Of a stretch of 64,000 bases of DNA, positions 8,321 to 37,317 are shown piece by piece. A program made the position numbers and the translations under genes. Below the pieces are notes generated by a model, which saw only the letters and a list, made by a program, of their open reading frames with translations, did no database searches and had not been told where the DNA came from. This DNA comes from Bacillota bacterium (lineage in GTDB: Bacteria > Bacillota > UBA994 > UBA5500), in the NCBI GenBank assembly GCA_012735505.1, contig JAAYHE010000029.1, positions 1,988-65,987 of the forward strand, written 5' to 3'. The stretch's first letter is position 1. The number at the start of each line of letters is the position of its first letter.

Positions 8321-8374
8321 TAGTAGGAGGCGTTTACTTTTCCTGTTGCCGGCGAAGCTTATAGTGTATACTGG

Positions 8375-8535
8375 ACATGGAGCAAGGTGCCCCTTTGTGG
8401 GAGAATAGGGAATCAGGTGAGAAACCTGAGCGGTCCCGCCACTATAACTACCCTGCTATTAGGGGTAGAAGCCAGGAGACCTGCCTTGCGCTTATGGCAC
8501 CGGCCTTCGGAGCAAAGGTCAGGGCATATTTGTCC
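8375..8535 (+). promoter_or_regulatory. cobalamin (B12) riboswitch
   Basis: The conserved core GGGAAtcaGGTGagAAaCCtgaGCgGtCCCGCCACTaTaa lies at 8408-8448 and the B12 box GCCAGGAGACCTGCC at 8471-8485. A possible -10 TATACT lies at 8367-8372. Confidence 0.75.
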
Positions 8536-8565: not shown

Positions 8566-8585
8566 AATTGGGAGGAGGGGTGGTT

Positions 8586-20819: not shown

Positions 20820-20996
20820 ATGCAAGTTCGCAGACTGACCAGGAGCAGAACCAACCGGGTGCTGACAGGGCTCTGCGGTGGGATTGGCGAATATTTAGGC
20901 ATAGATCCTGTTGTTATTCGCTTGATTTGGATTATTGTCCCGGGGCTAAACCTGTGCGCATATATAATCGGGTCCATCATCGTCCCTGAGGAATAA
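20820..20996 (+). CDS. PspC-domain small membrane protein (58 aa)
   Basis: Translation MQVRRLTRSRTNRVLTGLCGGIGEYLGIDPVVIRLIWIIV... matches the PspC-domain signature (R.R..R...GVCGGLAEY.G.DP..VR). An AAAGGGGTGGGAGG RBS precedes it. It is below the 60-aa ORF-track cutoff. Confidence 0.5.
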   Translation: MQVRRLTRSRTNRVLTGLCGGIGEYLGIDPVVIRLIWIIVPGLNLCAYIIGSIIVPEE

Positions 20997-27272: not shown

Positions 27273-28625
27273 GTGATCAGAGTACAGCTGTACAAATTGC
27301 CACAAACTGGCGAAATACGATTGCCAGCAAACTTTATCAAAGGACGTAGAATCAATGCTAATAACATAATCGTATCTTTTGGTCAAAGACAGGTGGAAGC
27401 TTCTCTAGAGTCCGATCCACACCCTAGTCCTCGCTTTAGGGTCGGACTAAGTTCCGACCTTATGTCTGAGCTAGGTCTAAGGTCCGGTGTCAGGCTGAGA
27501 GCATTTTGGGACGCTCGCAAGCAGCAATTTCGTTTGGGGCCTGTTGTCGCTATCATGGTCTGGCGTTATCGCAGGGTGTCGTCTGCTTGGTTGTTCGGGG
27601 CAGCAACCGACATGGCTCGCACTTTTGTGCGTTTAGCCCGGAGCAGGGGCGTAGTCGCTTATGCTTTTTCTCCTCGCGATATAGATTGGAATAGCAAAGG
27701 GGTTATCGGTTTTGTGCCCGCCGGCAGAGGTTGGCGTAGGGTAAGCCTACCTTTGCCTGATGTGGTTTATGACCGCATCCAGAGTCGGGCCTTAGACGCT
27801 ACTCGCCGCATGCAGAATGTTAAGCGACAACTGATGGCTCTAGAAGGTTTGCATTATTTTAACCCGTGTTTTCTAGATAAATGGGATACTTATCAGGCTT
27901 TAGTGAAAGACCCGATAGTTCAGCGCTACTTGCCTAGGACTGAAAAATTAACTTCCTTGGATCAATTGGGCCCTTGGTTGCGCACTTACCCGACGGTTTA
28001 TATTAAACCCTCACGCGGTTCCTTAGGTCTTGGCATCGTTAAAATATCCCGCATGGCAAGAGGCTTTCGCTACCAACGTATCCGCATGGGGGGAGGTAGT
28101 CAGGCTGGCTTGTGCAGTTCACTCCCTAAACTGGAGCGACGCCTGCGGAACATACTGCCCAAACGAACTATGATTATCCAGCAAGGCTTGCGTTTGGCCC
28201 GATACAAAGGCAGGCCTTACGACATTCGGGTCATGGTACAGAAAACGACCCGAGGCAATTGGGTGTGCACCAATATGATTGCCCGGGTAGCATCAGCCGG
28301 TAGCGCCGTTTCTAATGTAGCCGAAGGAGGGACGATGATTTCCGTGCGCCGAGCTATCCGTGGCTCGCTAAGGATCAATGTTGGATCAGCCGTGCGTCGT
28401 ATTCGCCGAGGGGCGAGACTGATCGCTAGAGCTGTTGAAGAACAATACGGGCAAGAGTTCGGAGAGTTCGGCATCGACATGGCCTTAGATAGGCGTGGCA
28501 GGGTTTGGCTGATTGAAGTAAATGCAAAGCCTGGTAGGCAGACCGACGAACCGGGAACGCCTCCTTCTATGCGGCGGGTTACTCGTTACGCCATAGCGAA
28601 AGCAGGGTTTAGCGAAAGGGGGTGA
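27273..28625 (+). CDS. YheC/YheD-family ATP-grasp enzyme with an N-terminal tandem swapped-hairpin (AbrB/MraZ-like) module
   Basis: ATP-grasp C-terminal motifs (GLRLARYKGRPYDIRVMV, SNVAEGG, IDMALDRRGRVWLIEVNAKPG). They are shared with 30173.., 31252.. and 32597... The N-terminal roughly 100 aa carry two AbrB-like hairpin repeats. Confidence 0.7.
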   Translation: MIRVQLYKLPQTGEIRLPANFIKGRRINANNIIVSFGQRQVEASLESDPHPSPRFRVGLSSDLMSELGLRSGVRLRAFWDARKQQFRLGPVVAIMVWRYRRVSSAWLFGAATDMARTFVRLARSRGVVAYAFSPRDIDWNSKGVIGFVPAGRGWRRVSLPLPDVVYDRIQSRALDATRRMQNVKRQLMALEGLHYFNPCFLDKWDTYQALVKDPIVQRYLPRTEKLTSLDQLGPWLRTYPTVYIKPSRGSLGLGIVKISRMARGFRYQRIRMGGGSQAGLCSSLPKLERRLRNILPKRTMIIQQGLRLARYKGRPYDIRVMVQKTTRGNWVCTNMIARVASAGSAVSNVAEGGTMISVRRAIRGSLRINVGSAVRRIRRGARLIARAVEEQYGQEFGEFGIDMALDRRGRVWLIEVNAKPGRQTDEPGTPPSMRRVTRYAIAKAGFSERG

Positions 28626-28629
28626 GCTA

Positions 28630-30042
28630 GTGGCGCGGAGCCTAGTTATTATGCCTTCTGAAACTAATCGGGCTATCTTAGCAGAGCTGTTGCCCGATGT
28701 AGTTGTCAGCCCCACCTATCAAACGGGAGCTTGGCGTTTCATCATTCGCTTCGGTGATGCAACAGGAAGTGATGACAACGCACTAGTTCTCAATCGGGCT
28801 AGTGCATTGGCCACACCCGATCTAACTGCTAAGGCTCAAGAACATTGGCGAGCCAGTTCCTTACGGTATCACAAGCCGGAAAACAGGGTTACTTTCTATA
28901 AAAGATACCGGGTGCAGGTTTTTGACTGTACCGCTATTTACATGCAAAGGGTTGAAATTGGCAGCCGCCGGGTACGTGTCATACGGCCGAACTTGTCTCG
29001 AGAAACACGGCGTGTAAGTGAACTGGCTTGGCGCGCCTTATATACAGCTGGTTTAGATATAGGTGCAGTAGATATTGGCCTCTCTAGTAGTGGCAAGTTA
29101 TATGTTCTGAGTATCAATCCGTGCCCTCGCTTTAATAGAGCCATTGGGGCAGCATATGCGCGGCACATAACAGCTTGGATGCAGCGGATGGAAGGTCGTG
29201 GAGCTGCTGGCCCCTTGCGATCTTTACTCAACCCTCAAGAAAATGAGTGCCCCCAATACCTGCTGGGGGCAGATCCCGAGTTTACCTTGCGTGACGCTCG
29301 CACGGGGCGCATGGTTTTTGCCTCGGATTATTTCCCGATGCAGGGAGTCATTGGTTGCGATGCTCGGCGCGTAAGGCTAGGCCGGTCCGGTTATCCTCTA
29401 GCCGAGGTAAGGCCTGCTCCAACCCAATGCCCCTTAGAGCTTTACGAAAGCATTCGCGATCTCCTATTGATGGCCCACCGCAAGGTTCCTCGCCGCTACA
29501 TCCAGTGGCGAGCTGGAACTTTACCATTCAGCCAACTGCCGGTTGGAGGACACATCCATTTTAGTATGTTACCTACTAACCATTTTTTACGAGCACTAGA
29601 TAATAGTTTAGCTGTTGTTTTCCTAATGCTAGAAAACCCTGGAGCGGCTCGCAGACGGCGCCGCAGTTATGGTTGGTTGGGTGACTATCGTCTCAAAAAG
29701 CATGGCGGATTTGAATATCGTGCTATCCCTAGTTGGCTAGTCAGTCCAGTATTTGCCCGCGGGGCTTTGTGTTTGGCCAAAGTTATAGGGTGTGACTGGC
29801 ATCGTTGGCGTTACGATTTTTTCCTCCGTCCTGAAGCCCAAGTTGCCTTTAAAAGAGCTGATCAAGATTACTTTCGAGTCGAATTAGCGAAAGTGCTTGT
29901 AGCTATTAGGTCGTTATCTAGTTATGTCAAATATTCCCAAGAAATCGAGGCGCTGTTGAATTACGTTGAGCAAGGACGGCGCTGGACTACAGCGACCGAC
30001 ATCAGACGCAGTTGGCGATTACGCGCTTCTAGTCGCACTTAG
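28630..30042 (+). CDS. fusion protein: truncated ATP-grasp C-terminal subdomain plus COOH-NH2 ligase-like (glutamine-synthetase-fold amidoligase) domain
   Basis: The N-terminal roughly 190 aa match only the C-terminal lobe of the neighbouring ATP-grasps (AVDIGLSSSGKLYVLSINPCP). The C-terminal roughly 270 aa have GADPEF...GGHIHFS motifs reminiscent of GCS2 / phiEco32-like COOH-NH2 ligases. Confidence 0.5.
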   Translation: MARSLVIMPSETNRAILAELLPDVVVSPTYQTGAWRFIIRFGDATGSDDNALVLNRASALATPDLTAKAQEHWRASSLRYHKPENRVTFYKRYRVQVFDCTAIYMQRVEIGSRRVRVIRPNLSRETRRVSELAWRALYTAGLDIGAVDIGLSSSGKLYVLSINPCPRFNRAIGAAYARHITAWMQRMEGRGAAGPLRSLLNPQENECPQYLLGADPEFTLRDARTGRMVFASDYFPMQGVIGCDARRVRLGRSGYPLAEVRPAPTQCPLELYESIRDLLLMAHRKVPRRYIQWRAGTLPFSQLPVGGHIHFSMLPTNHFLRALDNSLAVVFLMLENPGAARRRRRSYGWLGDYRLKKHGGFEYRAIPSWLVSPVFARGALCLAKVIGCDWHRWRYDFFLRPEAQVAFKRADQDYFRVELAKVLVAIRSLSSYVKYSQEIEALLNYVEQGRRWTTATDIRRSWRLRASSRT

Positions 30043-30045
30043 CGC

Positions 30046-30109
30046 GGGCACAAGGTTTTCGCGAAAACCATATATTGTACTACTATAGGAAACATCCTTC
30101 CTTGTGCCC
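30046..30109 (+). promoter_or_regulatory. nested inverted repeats between paralogs 2 and 3 (gggcacaagg...ccttgtgccc enclosing palindrome ggttttcgcgaaaacc)
   Basis: 10-bp perfect arms at 30046-30055 and 30100-30109, and a 16-bp perfect palindrome at 30054-30069. No U-tract follows. Confidence 0.3.
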
Positions 30110-30172
30110 ACGTGTGGCTGGGCTGTAATGAGACGGGTACACCAGAGGGAGAGGCAGTGGGGGTGGCTATAT

Positions 30173-31255
30173 ATGGTAAAGGGTAGAGACTTAGTAGGGG
30201 TGCTATCTATCCGCCGGCCTGGTCCGCGTCCTTTTGCAGAAGGTAGATTCTTTCGGGAATTGATGTGGGCAGGCCGGCAAGTTGGCATACGACTAATTAT
30301 ATTTAGCCCGTTGGACATCGACTGGGAGAGGGGTAGAGTCTTAGGTTTTGTTTATGTGCCCAGTAGGGGCTGGCGGTCCAGATATTATCCTGTTCCGCGC
30401 CTTATTTACGACCGTTTGTTTCCCAGCTCTGGTACCTGGGGGTTGTACTATAACCAAGTTATCCGCATGCGGCGTGTTTTTCGGGTAAGAATGCTGAACC
30501 GAGGTTTGCGTGGGAAATGGCAGATGTATCGCATTGTGAGAAGGTACGAGGATCTACGGCCCTATCTGCCCGAAACTCGCCTCGGCAGTTACCGCAACTT
30601 GTCTGTCATGTTAGCCAAATACAGTACCGTATTCGTTAAGCCTGTTTTTGGCAGTGGTGGCAAAGGCATTTGCCGCATCCAAAGGGGACGCGACGGTTAT
30701 TTGGTCGATAGGAGTGGCAGGCCGCGCATTCGCACGCACTCTCTATTAGGCGTCATCTATGCTTTAGGGGGCATAAATCGGCGTTATCTGATTCAGCAAG
30801 GCTTGAAGCTCAACTACTTAAACGGGAGAACTTTTGATGTTCGCAGCATCGTGCAAAGGAACGGTCAAGGCGAATGGCAGGTTTCCGGCAAAGCGATCCG
30901 AGCTGGTCGACGGGGCAGAATTACTTCCAATTTACATACGGGAGGCCGGGCCTACAACGTTTCTTCCGTATTGCAGCAGTATTTTCCTGATCGAGCTGAA
31001 GAGATTGAAAAAGAAATGGAAGCATTGGCAGTACGAGTGGCAGAGGTCATGAGTCAGCGTGCGGGTCCTCTATGCGACCTAGGACTAGATATGGGCGTAG
31101 ATGTTAATGGTAAAGTATGGTTGATAGAGGTTAACTCTAAGCCAGGGCGCACTGTCTTTCTGCGCATGGGCGATCGAGAAGGCCGGCGCCGGGTTGTGCA
31201 GACGTTAATGGAATATGCCCGCTATCAGATAGATCAACAGCGTCAGAGGAGGTGA
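30173..31255 (+). CDS. YheC/YheD-family ATP-grasp enzyme (no N-terminal extension)
   Basis: Motifs GLKLNYLNGRTFDVRSIV, GRITSNLHTGG, LDMGVDVNGKVWLIEVNSKPG. ATG at 30173 follows GGGGGTGG. The ORF track starts at 30104. Confidence 0.7.
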   Translation: MVKGRDLVGVLSIRRPGPRPFAEGRFFRELMWAGRQVGIRLIIFSPLDIDWERGRVLGFVYVPSRGWRSRYYPVPRLIYDRLFPSSGTWGLYYNQVIRMRRVFRVRMLNRGLRGKWQMYRIVRRYEDLRPYLPETRLGSYRNLSVMLAKYSTVFVKPVFGSGGKGICRIQRGRDGYLVDRSGRPRIRTHSLLGVIYALGGINRRYLIQQGLKLNYLNGRTFDVRSIVQRNGQGEWQVSGKAIRAGRRGRITSNLHTGGRAYNVSSVLQQYFPDRAEEIEKEMEALAVRVAEVMSQRAGPLCDLGLDMGVDVNGKVWLIEVNSKPGRTVFLRMGDREGRRRVVQTLMEYARYQIDQQRQRR

Positions 31256-32619
31256 TACCGGATATGGTGGAAACAGGTTATGCGCGGGTGCTTGGTTATG
31301 CTAGCGAATCAGCTTCGTGTATTTTGCCCCGCAGTTTGCTCGCCCGTCTCGGCTGGCGCCAAGGCGACATAGTCAATATAGCTTTCGGCCGTGCCAGCAG
31401 GCCCGTTAAGTTAAGGGCAGGCGATGACGATGTTTGGCGGGTTTCTACCGACTTGTTGCGCCATATAGGTCTTCGTCCCAGGAAATGGCTCTATTGCGTT
31501 GACACTGGGCGCAAGTTGATACGCTTTGGTCCATTAATCGGGATTATGACAACTTGGCATGTTACTCCGTATTTTCGTTCTGTGATGCGAGCAGCTGCCC
31601 GCAAAGGTATGATGGCGGTTGTTTTTAGACCCTATGACTTGCGCCTTGGTGGCAGGCAAATGAGTGCCTGGGCTCTGGTTGGCGGCGGAATGCAGAGAAT
31701 ACGGGTCCCTTGGCCCGATGTGGTTTATAACCGCATCCCCAACCGGGGGGGAGAATTGTTAGGCAGCACTAGAGCCTGCAGACGATTATTAGCACGCGCT
31801 TCAATCCCTGTTTTTAATAGCAAATTTTTTCATAAATGGCGCATCCATCGCCTCCTGCGGAGAGATGAACAGGCTAGGCAATATTTACCTGAGACACAAC
31901 CCATGGTTAGTATGAAACAAGCACGTCAGTTTTTGCACAAATACCCGATGATTTATCTCAAACCCAATGGCGGTAGTAAGGGACAAGGAATTGTACGCAT
32001 TAGGCGTGGGCAAGGGTACTCGGTCTCTTTCCGTCGGGGTCACCATAATTTCCAGCGTACATGTACCAGTTGGCTTGAGGCAGGAAATTTAGCCAGAAGA
32101 GGTATGCATAGACGGACTTACGTTGTGCAGGAAGGTGTGCCCTTAGCTAGGTACCATGGGCGTCCTTTCGACGTGCGGGTAACGTTATACAAGAATGGAA
32201 ATGGGGAATGGATTCCCTGCGGTCCAGCAGCAAAAATAGCCGGGCGGGGTAGCATCACAACCCATGTGGCTAACGGAGGACGAGTAGTTCCATTAGATCG
32301 AGTGCTCCGCCACGTCTTCGGCAGCGAGGCAGAGACAATGCGAGTGCGGATTGAAACGGCTTCTATAGACTTGGCTCGCGCGGTAGAACGGGTAACCGGG
32401 CTCGAATTGGGTGAGCTGGGATTAGACATCGGTCTTACTACCCAAGGCCGTGTTGCGATGTTTGAAGCCAATAGCAAGCCTGGCCGTGCCATCTTTGCGG
32501 CTGCTTGGAATCGTGACGATAGGCGGAAATCGTTATCGTACCTATGTGATTATGCCGCTTCTTTAGCAGGGTTTACGAATAGCGGGGTGAAGACTGATGC
32601 CAAAACTGCTAACTGTTAG
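31252..32619 (+). CDS. YheC/YheD-family ATP-grasp enzyme with an N-terminal tandem swapped-hairpin module
   Basis: Motifs GVPLARYHGRPFDVRVTL, GSITTHVANGG, LDIGLTTQGRVAMFEANSKPG. The N-terminus has CILPRSLLARLGWRQGDIVNIAF and WRVSTDLLRHIGLRPRKWLYCVDTGRKLIRF. The start is ambiguous (GTG 31252 or ATG 31264). Confidence 0.7.
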   Translation: MIPDMVETGYARVLGYASESASCILPRSLLARLGWRQGDIVNIAFGRASRPVKLRAGDDDVWRVSTDLLRHIGLRPRKWLYCVDTGRKLIRFGPLIGIMTTWHVTPYFRSVMRAAARKGMMAVVFRPYDLRLGGRQMSAWALVGGGMQRIRVPWPDVVYNRIPNRGGELLGSTRACRRLLARASIPVFNSKFFHKWRIHRLLRRDEQARQYLPETQPMVSMKQARQFLHKYPMIYLKPNGGSKGQGIVRIRRGQGYSVSFRRGHHNFQRTCTSWLEAGNLARRGMHRRTYVVQEGVPLARYHGRPFDVRVTLYKNGNGEWIPCGPAAKIAGRGSITTHVANGGRVVPLDRVLRHVFGSEAETMRVRIETASIDLARAVERVTGLELGELGLDIGLTTQGRVAMFEANSKPGRAIFAAAWNRDDRRKSLSYLCDYAASLAGFTNSGVKTDAKTANC

Positions 32620-33895
32620 GGTGTCATTCGCTGGCACAAGTAAGATTAACCTCCATCTGCCCGGATGCAAAAATGAATCTGTATCCCTCAGTATGGGATC
32701 TTTTAACGCCCTTGCACAAATGCAACCGGCAGACACAGCCGAGTTGGTCCTACATCGCACAGCTGCCCGTCAGATGGGGTTAAGGGATAAAGAAAAAATA
32801 GCTTATTACCGGCAGGGTAAAACCGTTAAGACAGGGCCTGTAGTAGGAATCTTAACCGCAGGCCAAGGTGTAGTTCCGGGGAACCGCGAGATGTTTCGAT
32901 TCGTGCAAAGGGCCTGCCAGCAGGCGGGCCTGGTGGCTTATGTTTTTACCCCAGCTGATGTAGATTGGACGCGCAACGTGGTCAGGGGATATCAATATCG
33001 TCAGGGACGCTGGCAATCTCGCCGTTTTCCTTTGCCCGACGTCGTCTATAATCGTGTCCCCAATCGGCAATTGGAGAGGGGTAGCGCCGTACGGTTGGTT
33101 AAACAGCGCCTGCGTTCTCGCGGCATTCCTTATTATAACTCCCATTATCTTAATAAATATGACTTGTATCGCATCTTGAGAGACACCGAAGTAGAGCCCC
33201 ACTTACCTTGGACCAGATCAGTAAGCAAAACTAGCGATATCGCAGGCGCCTTAAGACGGTTTGGCAGTGTTTACCTAAAGCCTAAACATGCTTTTGCTGG
33301 CAAAGGTATTTTGCGCGTCGATCTGCGGCCGTCTGGCTGGACTCTAAGATATCGTATGGGTCGTAATAGGGAAGTTAATGGCAGCACTCTAGCCGCTTTG
33401 TGGCCTGTACTTCATCGCCATATGGGCGGAAAAGGCTACGTGGTGCAGCAAGCTATACCTTTAGCACGCTATCAGGGGAGAGCTTTCGATGTGCGGTTGC
33501 TGGCACAGAAAAATGAGGCAGGTTACTGGCAAGTAACTGGCATGGGAATTCGCGTTGCTGGTAAGGGTAGCATCACAACACATGTTCCCAATGGTGGCTT
33601 TATCGCATCTGCTGATAAGGTCATTCCCGAGGTGTTCGGTTCACAAGCAGCTGAGGTTAGAGAAAATGTCGTGCGCTTAGCCCTTATGGTGGCACCCATC
33701 GTAGAAAAAAGTAGTCGGGGGCTATTTGGCGAGATGTCCATGGACATTGGTATTGATAGACAAGGGTGGCCTTGGTTCTTTGAAGCCAACGCCAAACCCA
33801 TGCGTTTTGACGAATCAGGTATCAGGAGGCGAGGGTTGGCGACCTTGGTCGCATATGCGAAATATCTCGCAGGAGTGCCCGAGGGAGGAGGGTAG
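32597..33895 (+). CDS. YheC/YheD-family ATP-grasp enzyme (single N-terminal hairpin-like motif)
   Basis: Motifs AIPLARYQGRAFDVRLLA, GSITTHVPNGG, MDIGIDRQGWPWFFEANAKP. It overlaps the previous gene by 23 nt. Confidence 0.7.
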   Translation: MPKLLTVRVSFAGTSKINLHLPGCKNESVSLSMGSFNALAQMQPADTAELVLHRTAARQMGLRDKEKIAYYRQGKTVKTGPVVGILTAGQGVVPGNREMFRFVQRACQQAGLVAYVFTPADVDWTRNVVRGYQYRQGRWQSRRFPLPDVVYNRVPNRQLERGSAVRLVKQRLRSRGIPYYNSHYLNKYDLYRILRDTEVEPHLPWTRSVSKTSDIAGALRRFGSVYLKPKHAFAGKGILRVDLRPSGWTLRYRMGRNREVNGSTLAALWPVLHRHMGGKGYVVQQAIPLARYQGRAFDVRLLAQKNEAGYWQVTGMGIRVAGKGSITTHVPNGGFIASADKVIPEVFGSQAAEVRENVVRLALMVAPIVEKSSRGLFGEMSMDIGIDRQGWPWFFEANAKPMRFDESGIRRRGLATLVAYAKYLAGVPEGGG

Positions 33896-33901
33896 CAAGG
33901 C

Positions 33902-34372
33902 ATGGTAAGGTACCAGCGCATCACTGAGCTTGATTTGGCGCGGCACAGGAGAGCTATGTTGCGCCTGATACGAGCCCACGGTGATAGGCACATCACACGT
34001 AAAGCCTACCAGAATTTGCGTACCATGCGGCCCGCGAGGTTAGCGCGAGAGGGGAATGTGATCTGGACAGCTTGGGATGGCGATCTCTTAGTAGGTGTGA
34101 TTATTTGTGAAAGTTATGGTAAGCGTACTTCTTTTTCAGTTGTGCGCAAGAGTCACCGGTCGCGCGGAATTGCTAAGGCACTTTTACTGCGTGCAGTAAA
34201 CTCTATGGGTAGGTTTTATGCCGAGGTAGCGTCTGATAACCTGGCTAGCATGAAAGTGCTATTTGGCATGGGTATGGTAGCCTACGATGCTTTCGTGCGC
34301 TATGGCAAAATCATCTTACGTGTACGTAATGGCTTCAACGTTTCATCGCTTGAGGAAGAAGACCGTGGGTGA
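33902..34372 (+). CDS. GNAT-fold acetyltransferase-like protein
   Basis: 156 aa with an acyl-CoA-binding-like segment VVRKSHRSRGIAKALL. It follows the last ATP-grasp gene by 6 nt and has a GGGAGGAGGG RBS. Confidence 0.45.
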   Translation: MVRYQRITELDLARHRRAMLRLIRAHGDRHITRKAYQNLRTMRPARLAREGNVIWTAWDGDLLVGVIICESYGKRTSFSVVRKSHRSRGIAKALLLRAVNSMGRFYAEVASDNLASMKVLFGMGMVAYDAFVRYGKIILRVRNGFNVSSLEEEDRG

Positions 34373-34535
34373 AATATTAATCAGGCCGCGACCTGTTGGG
34401 AGAGTCTCCGACAGGTTGTGGCCTGATTGTTTAAGTGAAGGTCTCTTTTGCTTCCTGGCTCAGGCAAGCATAAAGTTAAAGTCCGCCCCATAGAAATGAA
34501 ACGATGGAGAATACTGCGGGGAAGGAGCGATTGGC

Positions 34536-35888
34536 GTGAACATATGGCGTGGGGCAGACATCGCTCAAATATTTGGTGTAGAAGATGAGGGGTTAGTGCA
34601 AAATGGAGTGTTTTGTTTAAGCACTCCTTTCGGGCCGGCCGCACCTTCCGTCTATCGGGGTGATGTACGTTTCCTACAGTGGTTAGGGGCTGAGCTGCCC
34701 AGCATTACCACTAGGCTGGGGCGCCTAGGATTAAGTCGACTGTTACCTACGCCTGCAGGCCAATATTATGCCAATCTAGGTGGTGAATATGTGCTGCTGG
34801 CAACACTAGAGACGGGGCCGATTTGCGATGTCCATAACGCCTTTGAATTATTTACCGTCTCTGTTGGCCTAGCCCATGTCCATGCACAAGATGTGGGGGG
34901 AATAACGAGCAGTTCTCCTGATTGGTCAACTTATTATCAGGCTCAACGCGATAAGTTAGAACAAATAAGGCCGCCAGATCTATCTAGGCGAGCGCGGGCT
35001 GCCTGGGCTTTGTTGGAGGAGAGTTGGCAGCTTTGTATCGACGAAGCAGTGAGTCTGCTGGCAGATATACCTCGCGAAGCACGTGCGACTTGTTTAACCT
35101 TGGGGTTGAAAAGCTTCAGTGATTTTATTTATTTACCTGATTTACACCGAGTGCATTATAACCCGATTGCTAATTGCCGCCTGGATTCACCTGCCGTTGA
35201 CATCGCGCGTCTGTTGCTATCTGCTTCTGGCGATGTGCGTGTGATACATAACATGTTGTTATCGTACCAGCGGGTGAGGGAAATACCACCGGTGGAAGGG
35301 CAAGAAATATTGGCGCACCTTTGGTTCCCCCATGAAATAGATCTGCAAGTATTAGGAGAGCAAGGAGCAAATACGCTAAGCGTGCAGCGGCATTATAATC
35401 TTTTGCGAGATAAGATCGCGATGATAGCCGAAGTGGAAGATTTACTCTCACCCTTTGAACAAGGGGAAAATAATGAAGAGGAAACGGAGGTGCTGTCGAT
35501 GGCTAAAAGACAATCGAGGGAAGCGAGGACGAACCCGGTGACCTTAACTACGGCAGGAGAGGAAGACAATATTTTAACGCAAGAGCAAGTAGAATTGGTG
35601 GAACCGGCTGGGGACGGCGAGCCAGTAAATGTTAGTCAACCGCAAGAGGTGCCTGAACCCGCGCCAGAAGTGGCAGAGGAGGAAACAGTGCCACGTATCA
35701 ACCTAGAGGCGAAAAGAGAGGTAAAACCTATAGTCTGGGGTCCTTTCCCTAAACCTTTGGGAGCCGCCGATGACGAGGATGACGAGGAAGATAACATTGC
35801 AGTTGAACAAGAACCATTATCTGAGGAAGTAAGCTCGGAAGAACCAGATGCCTCAATAGAAACGGAGCCTCAACCAGATATTTGTTAA
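34536..35888 (+). CDS. CotS/kinase-fold-like spore coat protein candidate with a roughly 150-aa poly-acidic C-terminal tail
   Basis: The N-terminal roughly 300 aa are globular with a degenerate phosphotransferase-like segment (IYLPDLHRVHYNPIANC...VDIARLL). The C-terminus is low-complexity, rich in E/D/P (DDEDDEEDNIAVEQEPLSEEVSSEEPD...). GTG start after AAGGAG. Confidence 0.35.
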   Translation: MNIWRGADIAQIFGVEDEGLVQNGVFCLSTPFGPAAPSVYRGDVRFLQWLGAELPSITTRLGRLGLSRLLPTPAGQYYANLGGEYVLLATLETGPICDVHNAFELFTVSVGLAHVHAQDVGGITSSSPDWSTYYQAQRDKLEQIRPPDLSRRARAAWALLEESWQLCIDEAVSLLADIPREARATCLTLGLKSFSDFIYLPDLHRVHYNPIANCRLDSPAVDIARLLLSASGDVRVIHNMLLSYQRVREIPPVEGQEILAHLWFPHEIDLQVLGEQGANTLSVQRHYNLLRDKIAMIAEVEDLLSPFEQGENNEEETEVLSMAKRQSREARTNPVTLTTAGEEDNILTQEQVELVEPAGDGEPVNVSQPQEVPEPAPEVAEEETVPRINLEAKREVKPIVWGPFPKPLGAADDEDDEEDNIAVEQEPLSEEVSSEEPDASIETEPQPDIC

Positions 35889-35950: not shown

Positions 35951-36127
35951 ATGATGGTCGTGGCTCGAGGACGAGGCTTTATGTCCGACGAACTCAAGTA
36001 CCGACTGGCTGACGAGCTAGGTTTCGGGGATATAGTTCGCCAACATGGTTGGGGAGCTATCACTACCCGGGATGCAGGCAATCTGGTAAAGGCGGCTATC
36101 GCCAAGGCCCAGCAGATGATGCAATAA
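35951..36127 (+). CDS. ssp: alpha/beta-type small acid-soluble spore protein (SASP)
   Basis: Translation ...MSDELKYRLADELGFGDIVRQHGWGAITTRDAGNLVKAAIAKAQQMMQ follows the alpha/beta SASP pattern (KYEIAxEFGV...TSRxNG...KRLVxxAQQ). Three alternative in-frame starts exist (35951, GTG 35960, ATG 35981). Below the ORF-track cutoff. Confidence 0.5.
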   Translation: MMVVARGRGFMSDELKYRLADELGFGDIVRQHGWGAITTRDAGNLVKAAIAKAQQMMQ

Positions 36128-36143
36128 CAGCTATAGTGACAGA

Positions 36144-36175
36144 GGGCTGTCTCCGTCAGGAGCAGCCCTTATTTT
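36144..36175 (+). terminator. rho-independent terminator after the SASP gene
   Basis: A gggctgtctcc / ggagcagccc stem followed by TTATTTT. Confidence 0.5.
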
Positions 36176-36294
36176 ACTTCGCAGCAAAGTTGACAGGAGT
36201 ATATTACCGCAGCTAGCGCCAAACATGGTGCTGTAGGCAGTTACAGCTGCATAAACATAGAATAGCTCACTCTTGGTACCACCCTTATTTCAAC

Positions 36295-36323
36295 TTGACA
36301 CCCGAGGCCGTAATCTGTATGAA
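36295..36323 (+). promoter_or_regulatory. sigma-A-type promoter (TTGACA -35, 17 nt spacer, TATGAA -10) about 170 nt upstream of the small-peptide ORF
   Basis: Perfect -35 at 36295-36300 and a 5-of-6 -10 at 36318-36323. Confidence 0.4.
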
Positions 36324-36495
36324 TTGGCACATTCCGTTTGCTCGCGATTGGCAACAAGAGCACAGACCTCCCATTTGAAATTCTTCTGCATTTTCTTATC
36401 AGTAGGGCAGGAATACGCTAGGTAATTAGAGAATATGGCATTTAGTGAGTGAGGCTGACCTCTACAGCCTTGAGGTACCAGGGAGGTGAAAAAGC

Positions 36496-36573
36496 ATGTG
36501 GGATACCTATAATATCATTTTTGCCATTGTGGTCGTTGTAGTTGGCGTTGTCGCCTTAATGTCTTCTAAGTAG
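36496..36573 (+). CDS. 25-aa hydrophobic single-TM peptide (MWDTYNIIFAIVVVVVGVVALMSSK)
   Basis: A strong GGGAGGTG RBS lies 9 nt upstream and a clean terminator immediately downstream. It has its own promoter, and an anti-SD CCTCCC sits in its 5' leader. Confidence 0.4.
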   Translation: MWDTYNIIFAIVVVVVGVVALMSSK

Positions 36574-36608
36574 CTACAAAGACCTATAAGACACTTGGCT
36601 CTAGCTGA

Positions 36609-36644
36609 CCCATAACTAGGTGAAGTTATGGGCAGCTTTTTTTT
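36609..36644 (+). terminator. rho-independent terminator (cccataact/agttatggg + T8)
   Basis: A 9-bp stem with a 6-7 nt loop, followed by TTTTTTTT. Confidence 0.6.
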
Positions 36645-36885
36645 GCCCATTTTTAGGCTTACGCAGGTGGTGCATCCGTACGCTTGCACTGCTTGAACAG
36701 CCTTAGTTAGGCCTCGAGGCTTACCTGCTGCTGCCCCTTTAGGGCATTAGTCACATAAGTCAGTAGAATTTCTGAAAAAGCAGTGGGGAAAGAAGGAGTT
36801 GTTATGGCTGAAGCGAATATAATGTGGTGAAAAGTGGTGTATAGTGGGGATAAGTGGTGTAGTACCCAGCAAAGGGGGGAGGCAA

Positions 36886-37317
36886 GTGCTCCTAGGCGAG
36901 TATCAACATAGCGTTGATGAAAAGGGACGACTGACTATTCCCTCGCGTTTGCGAGAAGGTTTAGGCGAACGATTCGTGGTTACTAAGGGATTAGACAGTT
37001 GTCTCTTTGTCTACCCCCTAGCAGAGTGGAATGCTCTAGAAACTAAGTTAAGGGCTTTGCCCCTAACACGTCCCGAGGCCCGTTCTGTCGTTCGTTTGTT
37101 CTTCTCTGGCGCCATCGAGTGTGAGCTTGATCGCCAAGGTCGCATTTTATTGCCTCCCAATTTGCGTAGCCATGCTCGACTCGTAAAAGATGCATACATT
37201 ATTGGCGTATCTAATCGAGTAGAAATTTGGGATAAGGAAACATGGGAAGAATACAGTCAACAAGCTGCGGCTTCTTTCGAGCAAGCTGCTGCGCATCTGG
37301 ATGATCTAGGCATCTAG
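36886..37317 (+). CDS. mraZ: transcriptional regulator MraZ
   Basis: A GTG start (VLLGEYQHSVDEKGRLTIP) lies 6 nt after AAAGGGGGGAGG. It carries the tandem DxxGR swapped-hairpin repeats typical of MraZ. Confidence 0.85.
   Translation: MLLGEYQHSVDEKGRLTIPSRLREGLGERFVVTKGLDSCLFVYPLAEWNALETKLRALPLTRPEARSVVRLFFSGAIECELDRQGRILLPPNLRSHARLVKDAYIIGVSNRVEIWDKETWEEYSQQAAASFEQAAAHLDDLGI

Follow-up and report, generated by a model that had tools for sequence, protein, structure and literature searches.

The window analysed here is a stretch of 64,000 nucleotides from an uncultured, endospore-forming Bacillota MAG lineage of anaerobic digesters, and the spacer between its alpha/beta-type SASP gene and mraZ contains a compact array of expression signals around a 25-codon ORF (Table 1). 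We put the probability that this unit is a stand-alone, lineage-specific gene for a small membrane peptide, whose translation would be damped by its own leader, at about 0.5. A first-pass annotation had described a self-contained module of promoter, leader, Shine-Dalgarno (SD) sequence, ORF and terminator at this place. The anatomy of the sequence and the statistical excess of its parts bear this description out: every motif was found where it had been located when the sequence and the ORF list were read directly, and the unit does lie between the SASP gene and mraZ. Given that the promoter is rare, the SD enriched and the ORF rare and followed by a terminator 35 nt past its stop, an accidental ensemble is unlikely. 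The unit is a candidate for a known kind of gene, that of hydrophobic micro-proteins, and falls in no known family.

Table 1. Features of the peptide unit, its flanks and the intervals compared (positions of the window unless a locus is named)
Feature	Position	Strand	Details
alpha/beta-type SASP gene	stop at 36127	+	5' flank of the 25-codon ORF unit
Putative sigma-A-type promoter	36295..36323	+	TTGACA 36295-36300, 17 nt, TATGAA 36318-36323
5' leader, ~166 nt (inferred)	36330..36495	+	little local structure
Anti-SD segment ACCUCCC	36366..36372	+	CCTCCC at 36367-36372; 110 nt 5' of SD
Shine-Dalgarno GGGAGGTGA	36481..36489	+	GGGAGG 36481-36486; GGAGG core ending 9 nt before ATG
25-codon ORF and stop	36496..36573	+	MWDTYNIIFAIVVVVVGVVALMSSK; ATG 36496; from the ORF list
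Intrinsic terminator	36604..36644	+	13-bp interrupted stem, 6-nt loop, T8 at 36637-36644
mraZ	GTG at 36886		3' flank of the unit; start of the cell-division/cell-wall operon
SASP-mraZ interval compared	window 36128-36780; L008 3692-3890; L087 3184-4840; L097 3684-5440; L100		

The sigma-A-like promoter is proposed to drive a monocistronic transcript of ~315 nt, extending from about 36330 to 36644. The TTGACA-17-TATGAA arrangement that had been reported for it is present in the sequence. A perfect TTGACA combined with a 16- to 18-nt spacer and a -10 hexamer matching at least 4/6 positions was found only four times on the two strands of the window (128 kb), and three of these four promoter-like sites are intergenic and located upstream of genes. 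The site is absent from the list produced by an automatic promoter scan of the window because its -10 hexamer lacks the final T (position 6). This imperfect hexamer and the unremarkable folding of the whole transcript (z = -0.93) count against the reading as a small gene, and the latter would equally suit a non-functional spacer transcript. The start at about 36330, and hence the length of the leader, is estimated from sequence.

Further upstream, the SASP gene (35951-36127, plus strand) has its own terminator (z = -4), which separates the SASP and peptide units. Its most likely start is GTG 35960, which is preceded by AAAGGA at a distance of 8 nt; ATG 35951 is less likely because the proteins of relatives open with MARGRG. 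The Pfam score of the SASP was 19.8 bits, just below the gathering cut-off of 22. Two inverted-repeat pairs, each with 92% complementarity and 372 nt between the arms, were noticed around the unit, one of 13 nt (36210-36222/36595-36607) and one of 12 nt (36377-36388/36761-36772), and both are close to chance expectation. The former would link a site 5' of the promoter with the part of the 3' UTR that directly precedes the terminator and would be relevant only if transcription began further upstream, for example, at TTCGCA-16-TATATT (36178-36205).

The 8-nt SD (GGAGGTGA, 36482-36489) is well spaced and would direct the translation of a peptide of 25 residues; the ORF cannot begin further upstream because of an in-frame TGA at 36487-36489. 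There are five copies of GGAGGTGA in the window, compared with 1.4 expected, and of the four copies elsewhere two are found at gene starts and two are not. About 9 spurious ORFs with 20 aa or more that combine GGAGG with a start codon occur in 128 kb, which leads to an expectation of ~0.05 on this strand of the spacer. When 1.57 Mb of related Bacillota DNA was inspected on both strands, just two GGAGG+ATG ORFs of 15-45 aa with a membrane-helix-like window were detected, one of them encoding MWDTYNIIFAIVVVVVGVVALMSSK. The prediction of a 25-aa hydrophobic peptide with one helix was well founded: a single hydrophobic helix spans residues about 7-22, 14 of the 15 residues of the best window, IIFAIVVVVVGVVAL, are hydrophobic, and the mean hydropathy of 1.64 is the highest among all GGAGG-led ORFs in the window. 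Being essentially one hydrophobic helix, the peptide would be expected to reside in the cytoplasmic membrane.

No exact copy of the peptide exists among ~15 billion called proteins, and it has never been annotated as a gene; Prodigal, a commonly used gene finder, has a minimum gene length of about 90 nt, and the 25-codon ORF is shorter. Pfam and NCBIfam profile searches with the peptide returned sub-threshold, unrelated matches only, none of the five other ORFs of the spacer was assigned to a Pfam family, and the 64-kb window contains neither a second copy of the peptide nor tandem copies. Another GGAGGTGA SD precedes a 58-aa ORF (20820-20996, plus strand) that opens with MQVRRLTRSRTNRVLTGLCGGIGEYLGIDPVVIRLIWIIV and presumably resembles a PspC-type membrane protein; short SD-led genes thus do occur in the genome of the host.

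The first-pass annotation also held that an anti-SD in the leader sequesters the ribosome-binding site, and it proposed RNA folding as a check. Two folds were compared, namely, that of the leader alone up to position +15 and that of the full transcript (321 nt). In the former, ACCUCCC pairs with GGGAGGU at 36481-36487 with a probability of 0.94-1.0, and 36339-42 pairs in addition with 36493-96, so that the AUG is covered at its first base. The SD is paired with a probability of 0.99 in this fold, as compared to 0.73 +/- 0.16 for 300 dinucleotide shuffles of the leader and 0.70 for 21 real genes of the window; equal occlusion was reached by 3% of the shuffles, and two of the 21 genes (0.97 and 0.98) came within 0.02 of the value of the unit. 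In the fold of the full transcript, however, the probability of the helix is only 0.36-0.39, and the helix lies outside the minimum-free-energy structure, 1 kcal/mol above it. Occlusion of the SD is thermodynamically feasible, and for a transcript that starts near 36330 its occurrence is plausible and mildly significant. According to this model, ACCUCCC would mask the SD in a long-range helix while flanking pairings would cover the AUG, and the mRNA would therefore probably be poorly translated unless the helix is opened.

Apart from this long-range pairing, the region comprising the leader (36250-36499, plus strand) is less structured than shuffled sequences, with z-scores of +0.4 to +2.75 in sliding 90-nt folds. 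A search of the unit, including the leader, against Rfam on both strands (E<=10) gave no matches, and the leader DNA has no similarity to any of the relatives' loci. On the minus strand (36241-36357), the CCTCCC of the leader reads GGGAGG and is followed after 9 nt by the TTG of a 38-aa ORF, MLPIASKRNVPIHTDYGLGCQVEIRVVPRVSYSMFMQL. This ORF has no Pfam match and no support, and it offers an alternative reason for the presence of the hexamer.

The strong terminator noted at 36609-36644 was confirmed, with a free energy of -18.6 kcal/mol, a local z-score of -3.7 and the T8 tract. Its core stem (36609-36632) can be extended to 36604-36636, and since the minus-strand copy is not followed by a U-run, termination is predicted in one direction only. 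The terminator would close the unit and insulate the conserved promoter and operator of mraZ located downstream. This operator is presumably the array of four GTGG[TG]G boxes at 36824-36859 (plus strand), which have an exact 10-nt spacing and lie 27-62 nt 5' of the mraZ start; we assume that it serves the autorepression by MraZ. The four-box array is unique in the window and was seen in 0/100 shuffles, and 94 of 106 loci fetched across the Bacillota have a three-box version in the corresponding position.

Relatives were obtained through a scan with MraZ, and 99 of the 106 loci are from other species. Four independent assemblies of a single species, namely, the window and loci L001, L002 and L106, carry identical copies of the unit, and they differ close to it only by a 1-nt indel outside the unit, at 36208. 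At this position, in the spacer 5' of the proposed promoter, the window is one A short compared to all three other assemblies, which reflects strain variation or else a mistake in the assembly. There are no strain SNPs in the unit, with only about one expected, which is too sparse a number to help. The 90% cluster of MraZ comprises near-identical sequences only, and the collections contained no intermediate relatives. A tblastn search, which had been suggested as a measure of conservation, was run with the peptide against the 106 loci, together with a blastn search with the spacer, and the conservation sought was not found: both retrieved the same species only. A degenerate DNA pattern for MWDTYNII matched one metagenome contig of the same species and no viral contig, and searches of plasmid and phage collections with the peptide and the DNA gave no matches. 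The unit is thus an orphan that is restricted to one species in the data searched.

In the nearest relatives, MraZ is 81-84% identical and the SASP at least 90%, and the content of the interval between the two genes differs. The spacer of 759 bp in the window compares with one of 310 bp in the UBA5500 relative L008 (MraZ 81% identical), which does not contain a hydrophobic ORF. In L087-L099 and L103-104, two fumarase-subunit genes are located between the SASP gene and mraZ, and in L100-102 the interval lies in a rearranged block. Conservation is limited to the ~110 bp that immediately precede mraZ, and the spacer at 36128-36780 has no counterpart in relatives. Among close relatives, the SASP-mraZ interval is a hot spot for changes in gene content, and since the nearest relatives carry other content there, purifying selection on the peptide is not demonstrable.

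Several origins of the spacer were considered and rejected. Descent from decayed fumarase genes was not supported, as tblastn and blastn searches found no trace of them. Small hydrophobic ORFs are not a usual feature upstream of mraZ, as only 3 unrelated cases, all in Paenibacillaceae, were found among 97 loci. As for the insertion of a mobile element, the flanking repeats amounted only to chance-level matches of 12-13 nt. A 17-nt match between 36487-36503 and 36773-36789, which might have pointed to a partial duplication of the block upstream of mraZ, was judged to be due to chance because it does not line up collinearly with the second repeat.

Since conservation is lacking altogether, a non-functional by-product is the main alternative to a small gene. 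A spacer of fast turnover would then carry an SD-led, GT-rich ORF by chance and would give rise at most to a non-coding transcript or a proto-gene, with a peptide that is not under selection. This alternative is possible and appears less probable than a small gene. The unmatched spacer and the varying content of the interval between close lineages are what it would predict, as is the absence of the peptide from gene calls; Val-rich hydrophobic peptides are an automatic outcome of GT-rich DNA, and the window does hold spurious ORFs behind GGAGG. It has to account, however, for a perfect -35 element, an 8-nt SD, an ATG, an ORF of helix length and a strong terminator together within 350 nt, and the promoter and ORF censuses place the chance of such a co-occurrence well below 0.01 per spacer. 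If the unit is a small gene, its peptide could modulate a membrane protein, act as a toxin or be the product of a young gene with little function. The toxin proposal had been made in the first-pass annotation, and in its full form, that of a new type I toxin-antitoxin system with a membrane-damaging peptide silenced by SD occlusion and an undetected antisense RNA, it is unlikely. The type I toxins of Gram-positive bacteria are peptides of 25-60 aa, made from mRNAs of 150-400 nt with an anti-SD-sequestered SD and a 3' terminator (PMC10730256; PMC8594479). The peptide shares the hydrophobic single helix with those of Fst/RNAII, BsrG/SR4, BsrE/SR5, TxpA/RatA and SprA1, at the low end of their size range, and the unit resembles their genes in its sigma-A-type promoter, upstream anti-SD with predicted SD occlusion, and 3' terminator stem-loop behind a short monocistronic mRNA. 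Promoter type and peptide size agree with published descriptors (PMC10730256), and so does an mRNA of ~315 nt with its SD/anti-SD pair and terminator, given a start near 36330 (PMC8594479). Fozo et al. recognized a transmembrane segment in a small protein by at least 10 of 15 residues being I, V, L, F, C, M or A (PMC2887945), and the 25-aa peptide reaches 14 of 15. The same 2010 search also used gaps of >400 nt upstream and >250 nt downstream and a cluster of polar, charged or bulky residues at the C-terminus (PMC2887945). Here, the downstream gap of 312 nt is large enough, whereas the upstream gap, at 368 nt, is too short, and the C-terminus, ALMSSK, has one Lys as its sole charge. In contrast to the Gram-positive systems, the unit has no predictable antisense RNA overlapping its 3' end: no Rfam antitoxin family was matched on either strand (E<=10), there are no predicted minus-strand promoters or terminators within the unit, and the opposite-strand search for an antisense promoter that had been suggested did not yield a promoter-terminator pair. 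A single A5 run on the plus strand provides the only minus-strand U-run, which is not preceded by a stable hairpin, the minus-strand structure minimum merely mirrors the terminator, and the terminator itself is not bidirectional. A charged or bulky C-terminal cluster, links to plasmids, phages or prophages, paralogues or tandem copies in the 64 kb, and matches to toxin HMMs (Pfam, NCBIfam) were equally absent, so that the proposal has gained no support. The enterobacterial Ibs toxins have 18-19 aa and are extremely hydrophobic, consisting nearly entirely of Val, Ile and Leu (PMC2887945). The peptide is likewise very short and composed almost wholly of these residues, but the proteobacterial Ibs/Sib loci are arranged in tandem repeats and are fully covered by the antisense Sib RNAs, none of which is seen at the unit, and the Pfam scan of the peptide gave no match to a toxin family. 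The principle of an anti-SD within the same mRNA is shared with AapA1/IsoA1 of Helicobacter pylori, for which an intramolecular anti-SD is described to occlude the SD and to keep the primary transcript translationally inert (PMC6733600). That system, from another phylum, depends on 3' processing and on an antisense RNA that has been defined, neither of which is detectable at the unit, and the sequences are unrelated.

The other function that had been proposed, a sporulation-specific small membrane peptide of the SpoVM/CmpA size class that is co-expressed with the adjacent spore genes, is improbable. The host forms endospores, and the unit adjoins the SASP gene and a cluster of YheC/D ATP-grasp genes, upstream of the division/cell-wall operon. 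Yet the promoter that is present is sigma-A-like, the SASP terminator splits the two units, and the peptide is absent from all 99 loci fetched from other species, even where the SASP is at least 90% identical or the same YheCD cluster is present, so that no relative examined has it beside the SASP gene and the proposal finds no backing there. SpoVM is conserved in endospore formers, whereas the peptide is confined to one species, and it has no SpoVM-type Pfam match. Upstream of the unit, there are no matches to sigma F, G or K patterns and one weak sigma-E-like match at chance rate; these patterns, which were derived from B. subtilis, are poorly calibrated and also miss the promoter of the SASP gene. 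In size and spore-forming host, the peptide is comparable to SpoVM (26 aa) and CmpA of Bacillus subtilis (PMC10730256), but the helix of SpoVM is amphipathic (PMC10730256) and lies at the surface, its promoter is of the sigma-E type, and the core of the peptide is uniformly hydrophobic. There is also a formal likeness to micropeptides of the KdpF, AcrZ and MgrB type, which are single-helix proteins of <50 aa with their own small gene, KdpF being the small-protein partner of the Kdp pump (PMC10730256); the genes of such proteins usually belong to the operon of the partner or adjoin it, and they are conserved together with it, whereas the peptide has no linked partner and no conservation. Its codon usage suggests yet another role, since Val accounts for seven of the 25 codons, five of them consecutive, with three Ile codons besides, and the terminator stands 35 nt past the short ORF. 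A Val-codon leader peptide that controls this terminator by ribosome-mediated attenuation, in the style of ilvL/ivbL, has next to no probability, however, and was rejected. The terminator hairpin is present in all 5' truncations folded, a competing antiterminator was not found, and the best fold without the terminator is 16.6 kcal/mol worse. The genes downstream are mraZ and the division operon rather than an operon for branched-chain amino acids, and a conserved promoter and operator belonging to mraZ itself lie 150-200 nt beyond the terminator.

A more specific proposal can be advanced only tentatively and with low odds: the unit may found a species-specific family of type I-like toxins, or be a newborn membrane micro-gene, that is silenced mainly in cis by its anti-SD leader and not by a classical antisense RNA. 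Such a unit would have arisen in a fast-turnover spacer and would already be equipped with promoter, SD, self-silencing leader and terminator. If expressed, it would be an example of the lineage-specific membrane micro-proteins, possibly toxins, that annotation misses in uncultured Bacillota, and of a complete expression unit in a spacer whose content differs in each close relative. As it stands, the peptide ORF is an ordinary candidate small ORF and of modest interest unless it is expressed or toxic.

Other parts of the window deserve mention. Upstream of the SASP gene, a conserved cluster on the plus strand (27273-35888) comprises four YheC/D-type ATP-grasp genes and the genes for a COOH-NH2 ligase, an acetyltransferase and a 450-aa protein. 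The latter (34536-35888) has no Pfam domains and a highly acidic C-terminal tail. The cluster might, as a speculation, encode a system for peptide ligation or tagging that is linked to sporulation. At 8368-8502 (plus strand), a cobalamin riboswitch (RF00174, 77 bits) is located 5' of a membrane/transporter gene pair that starts at 8568.
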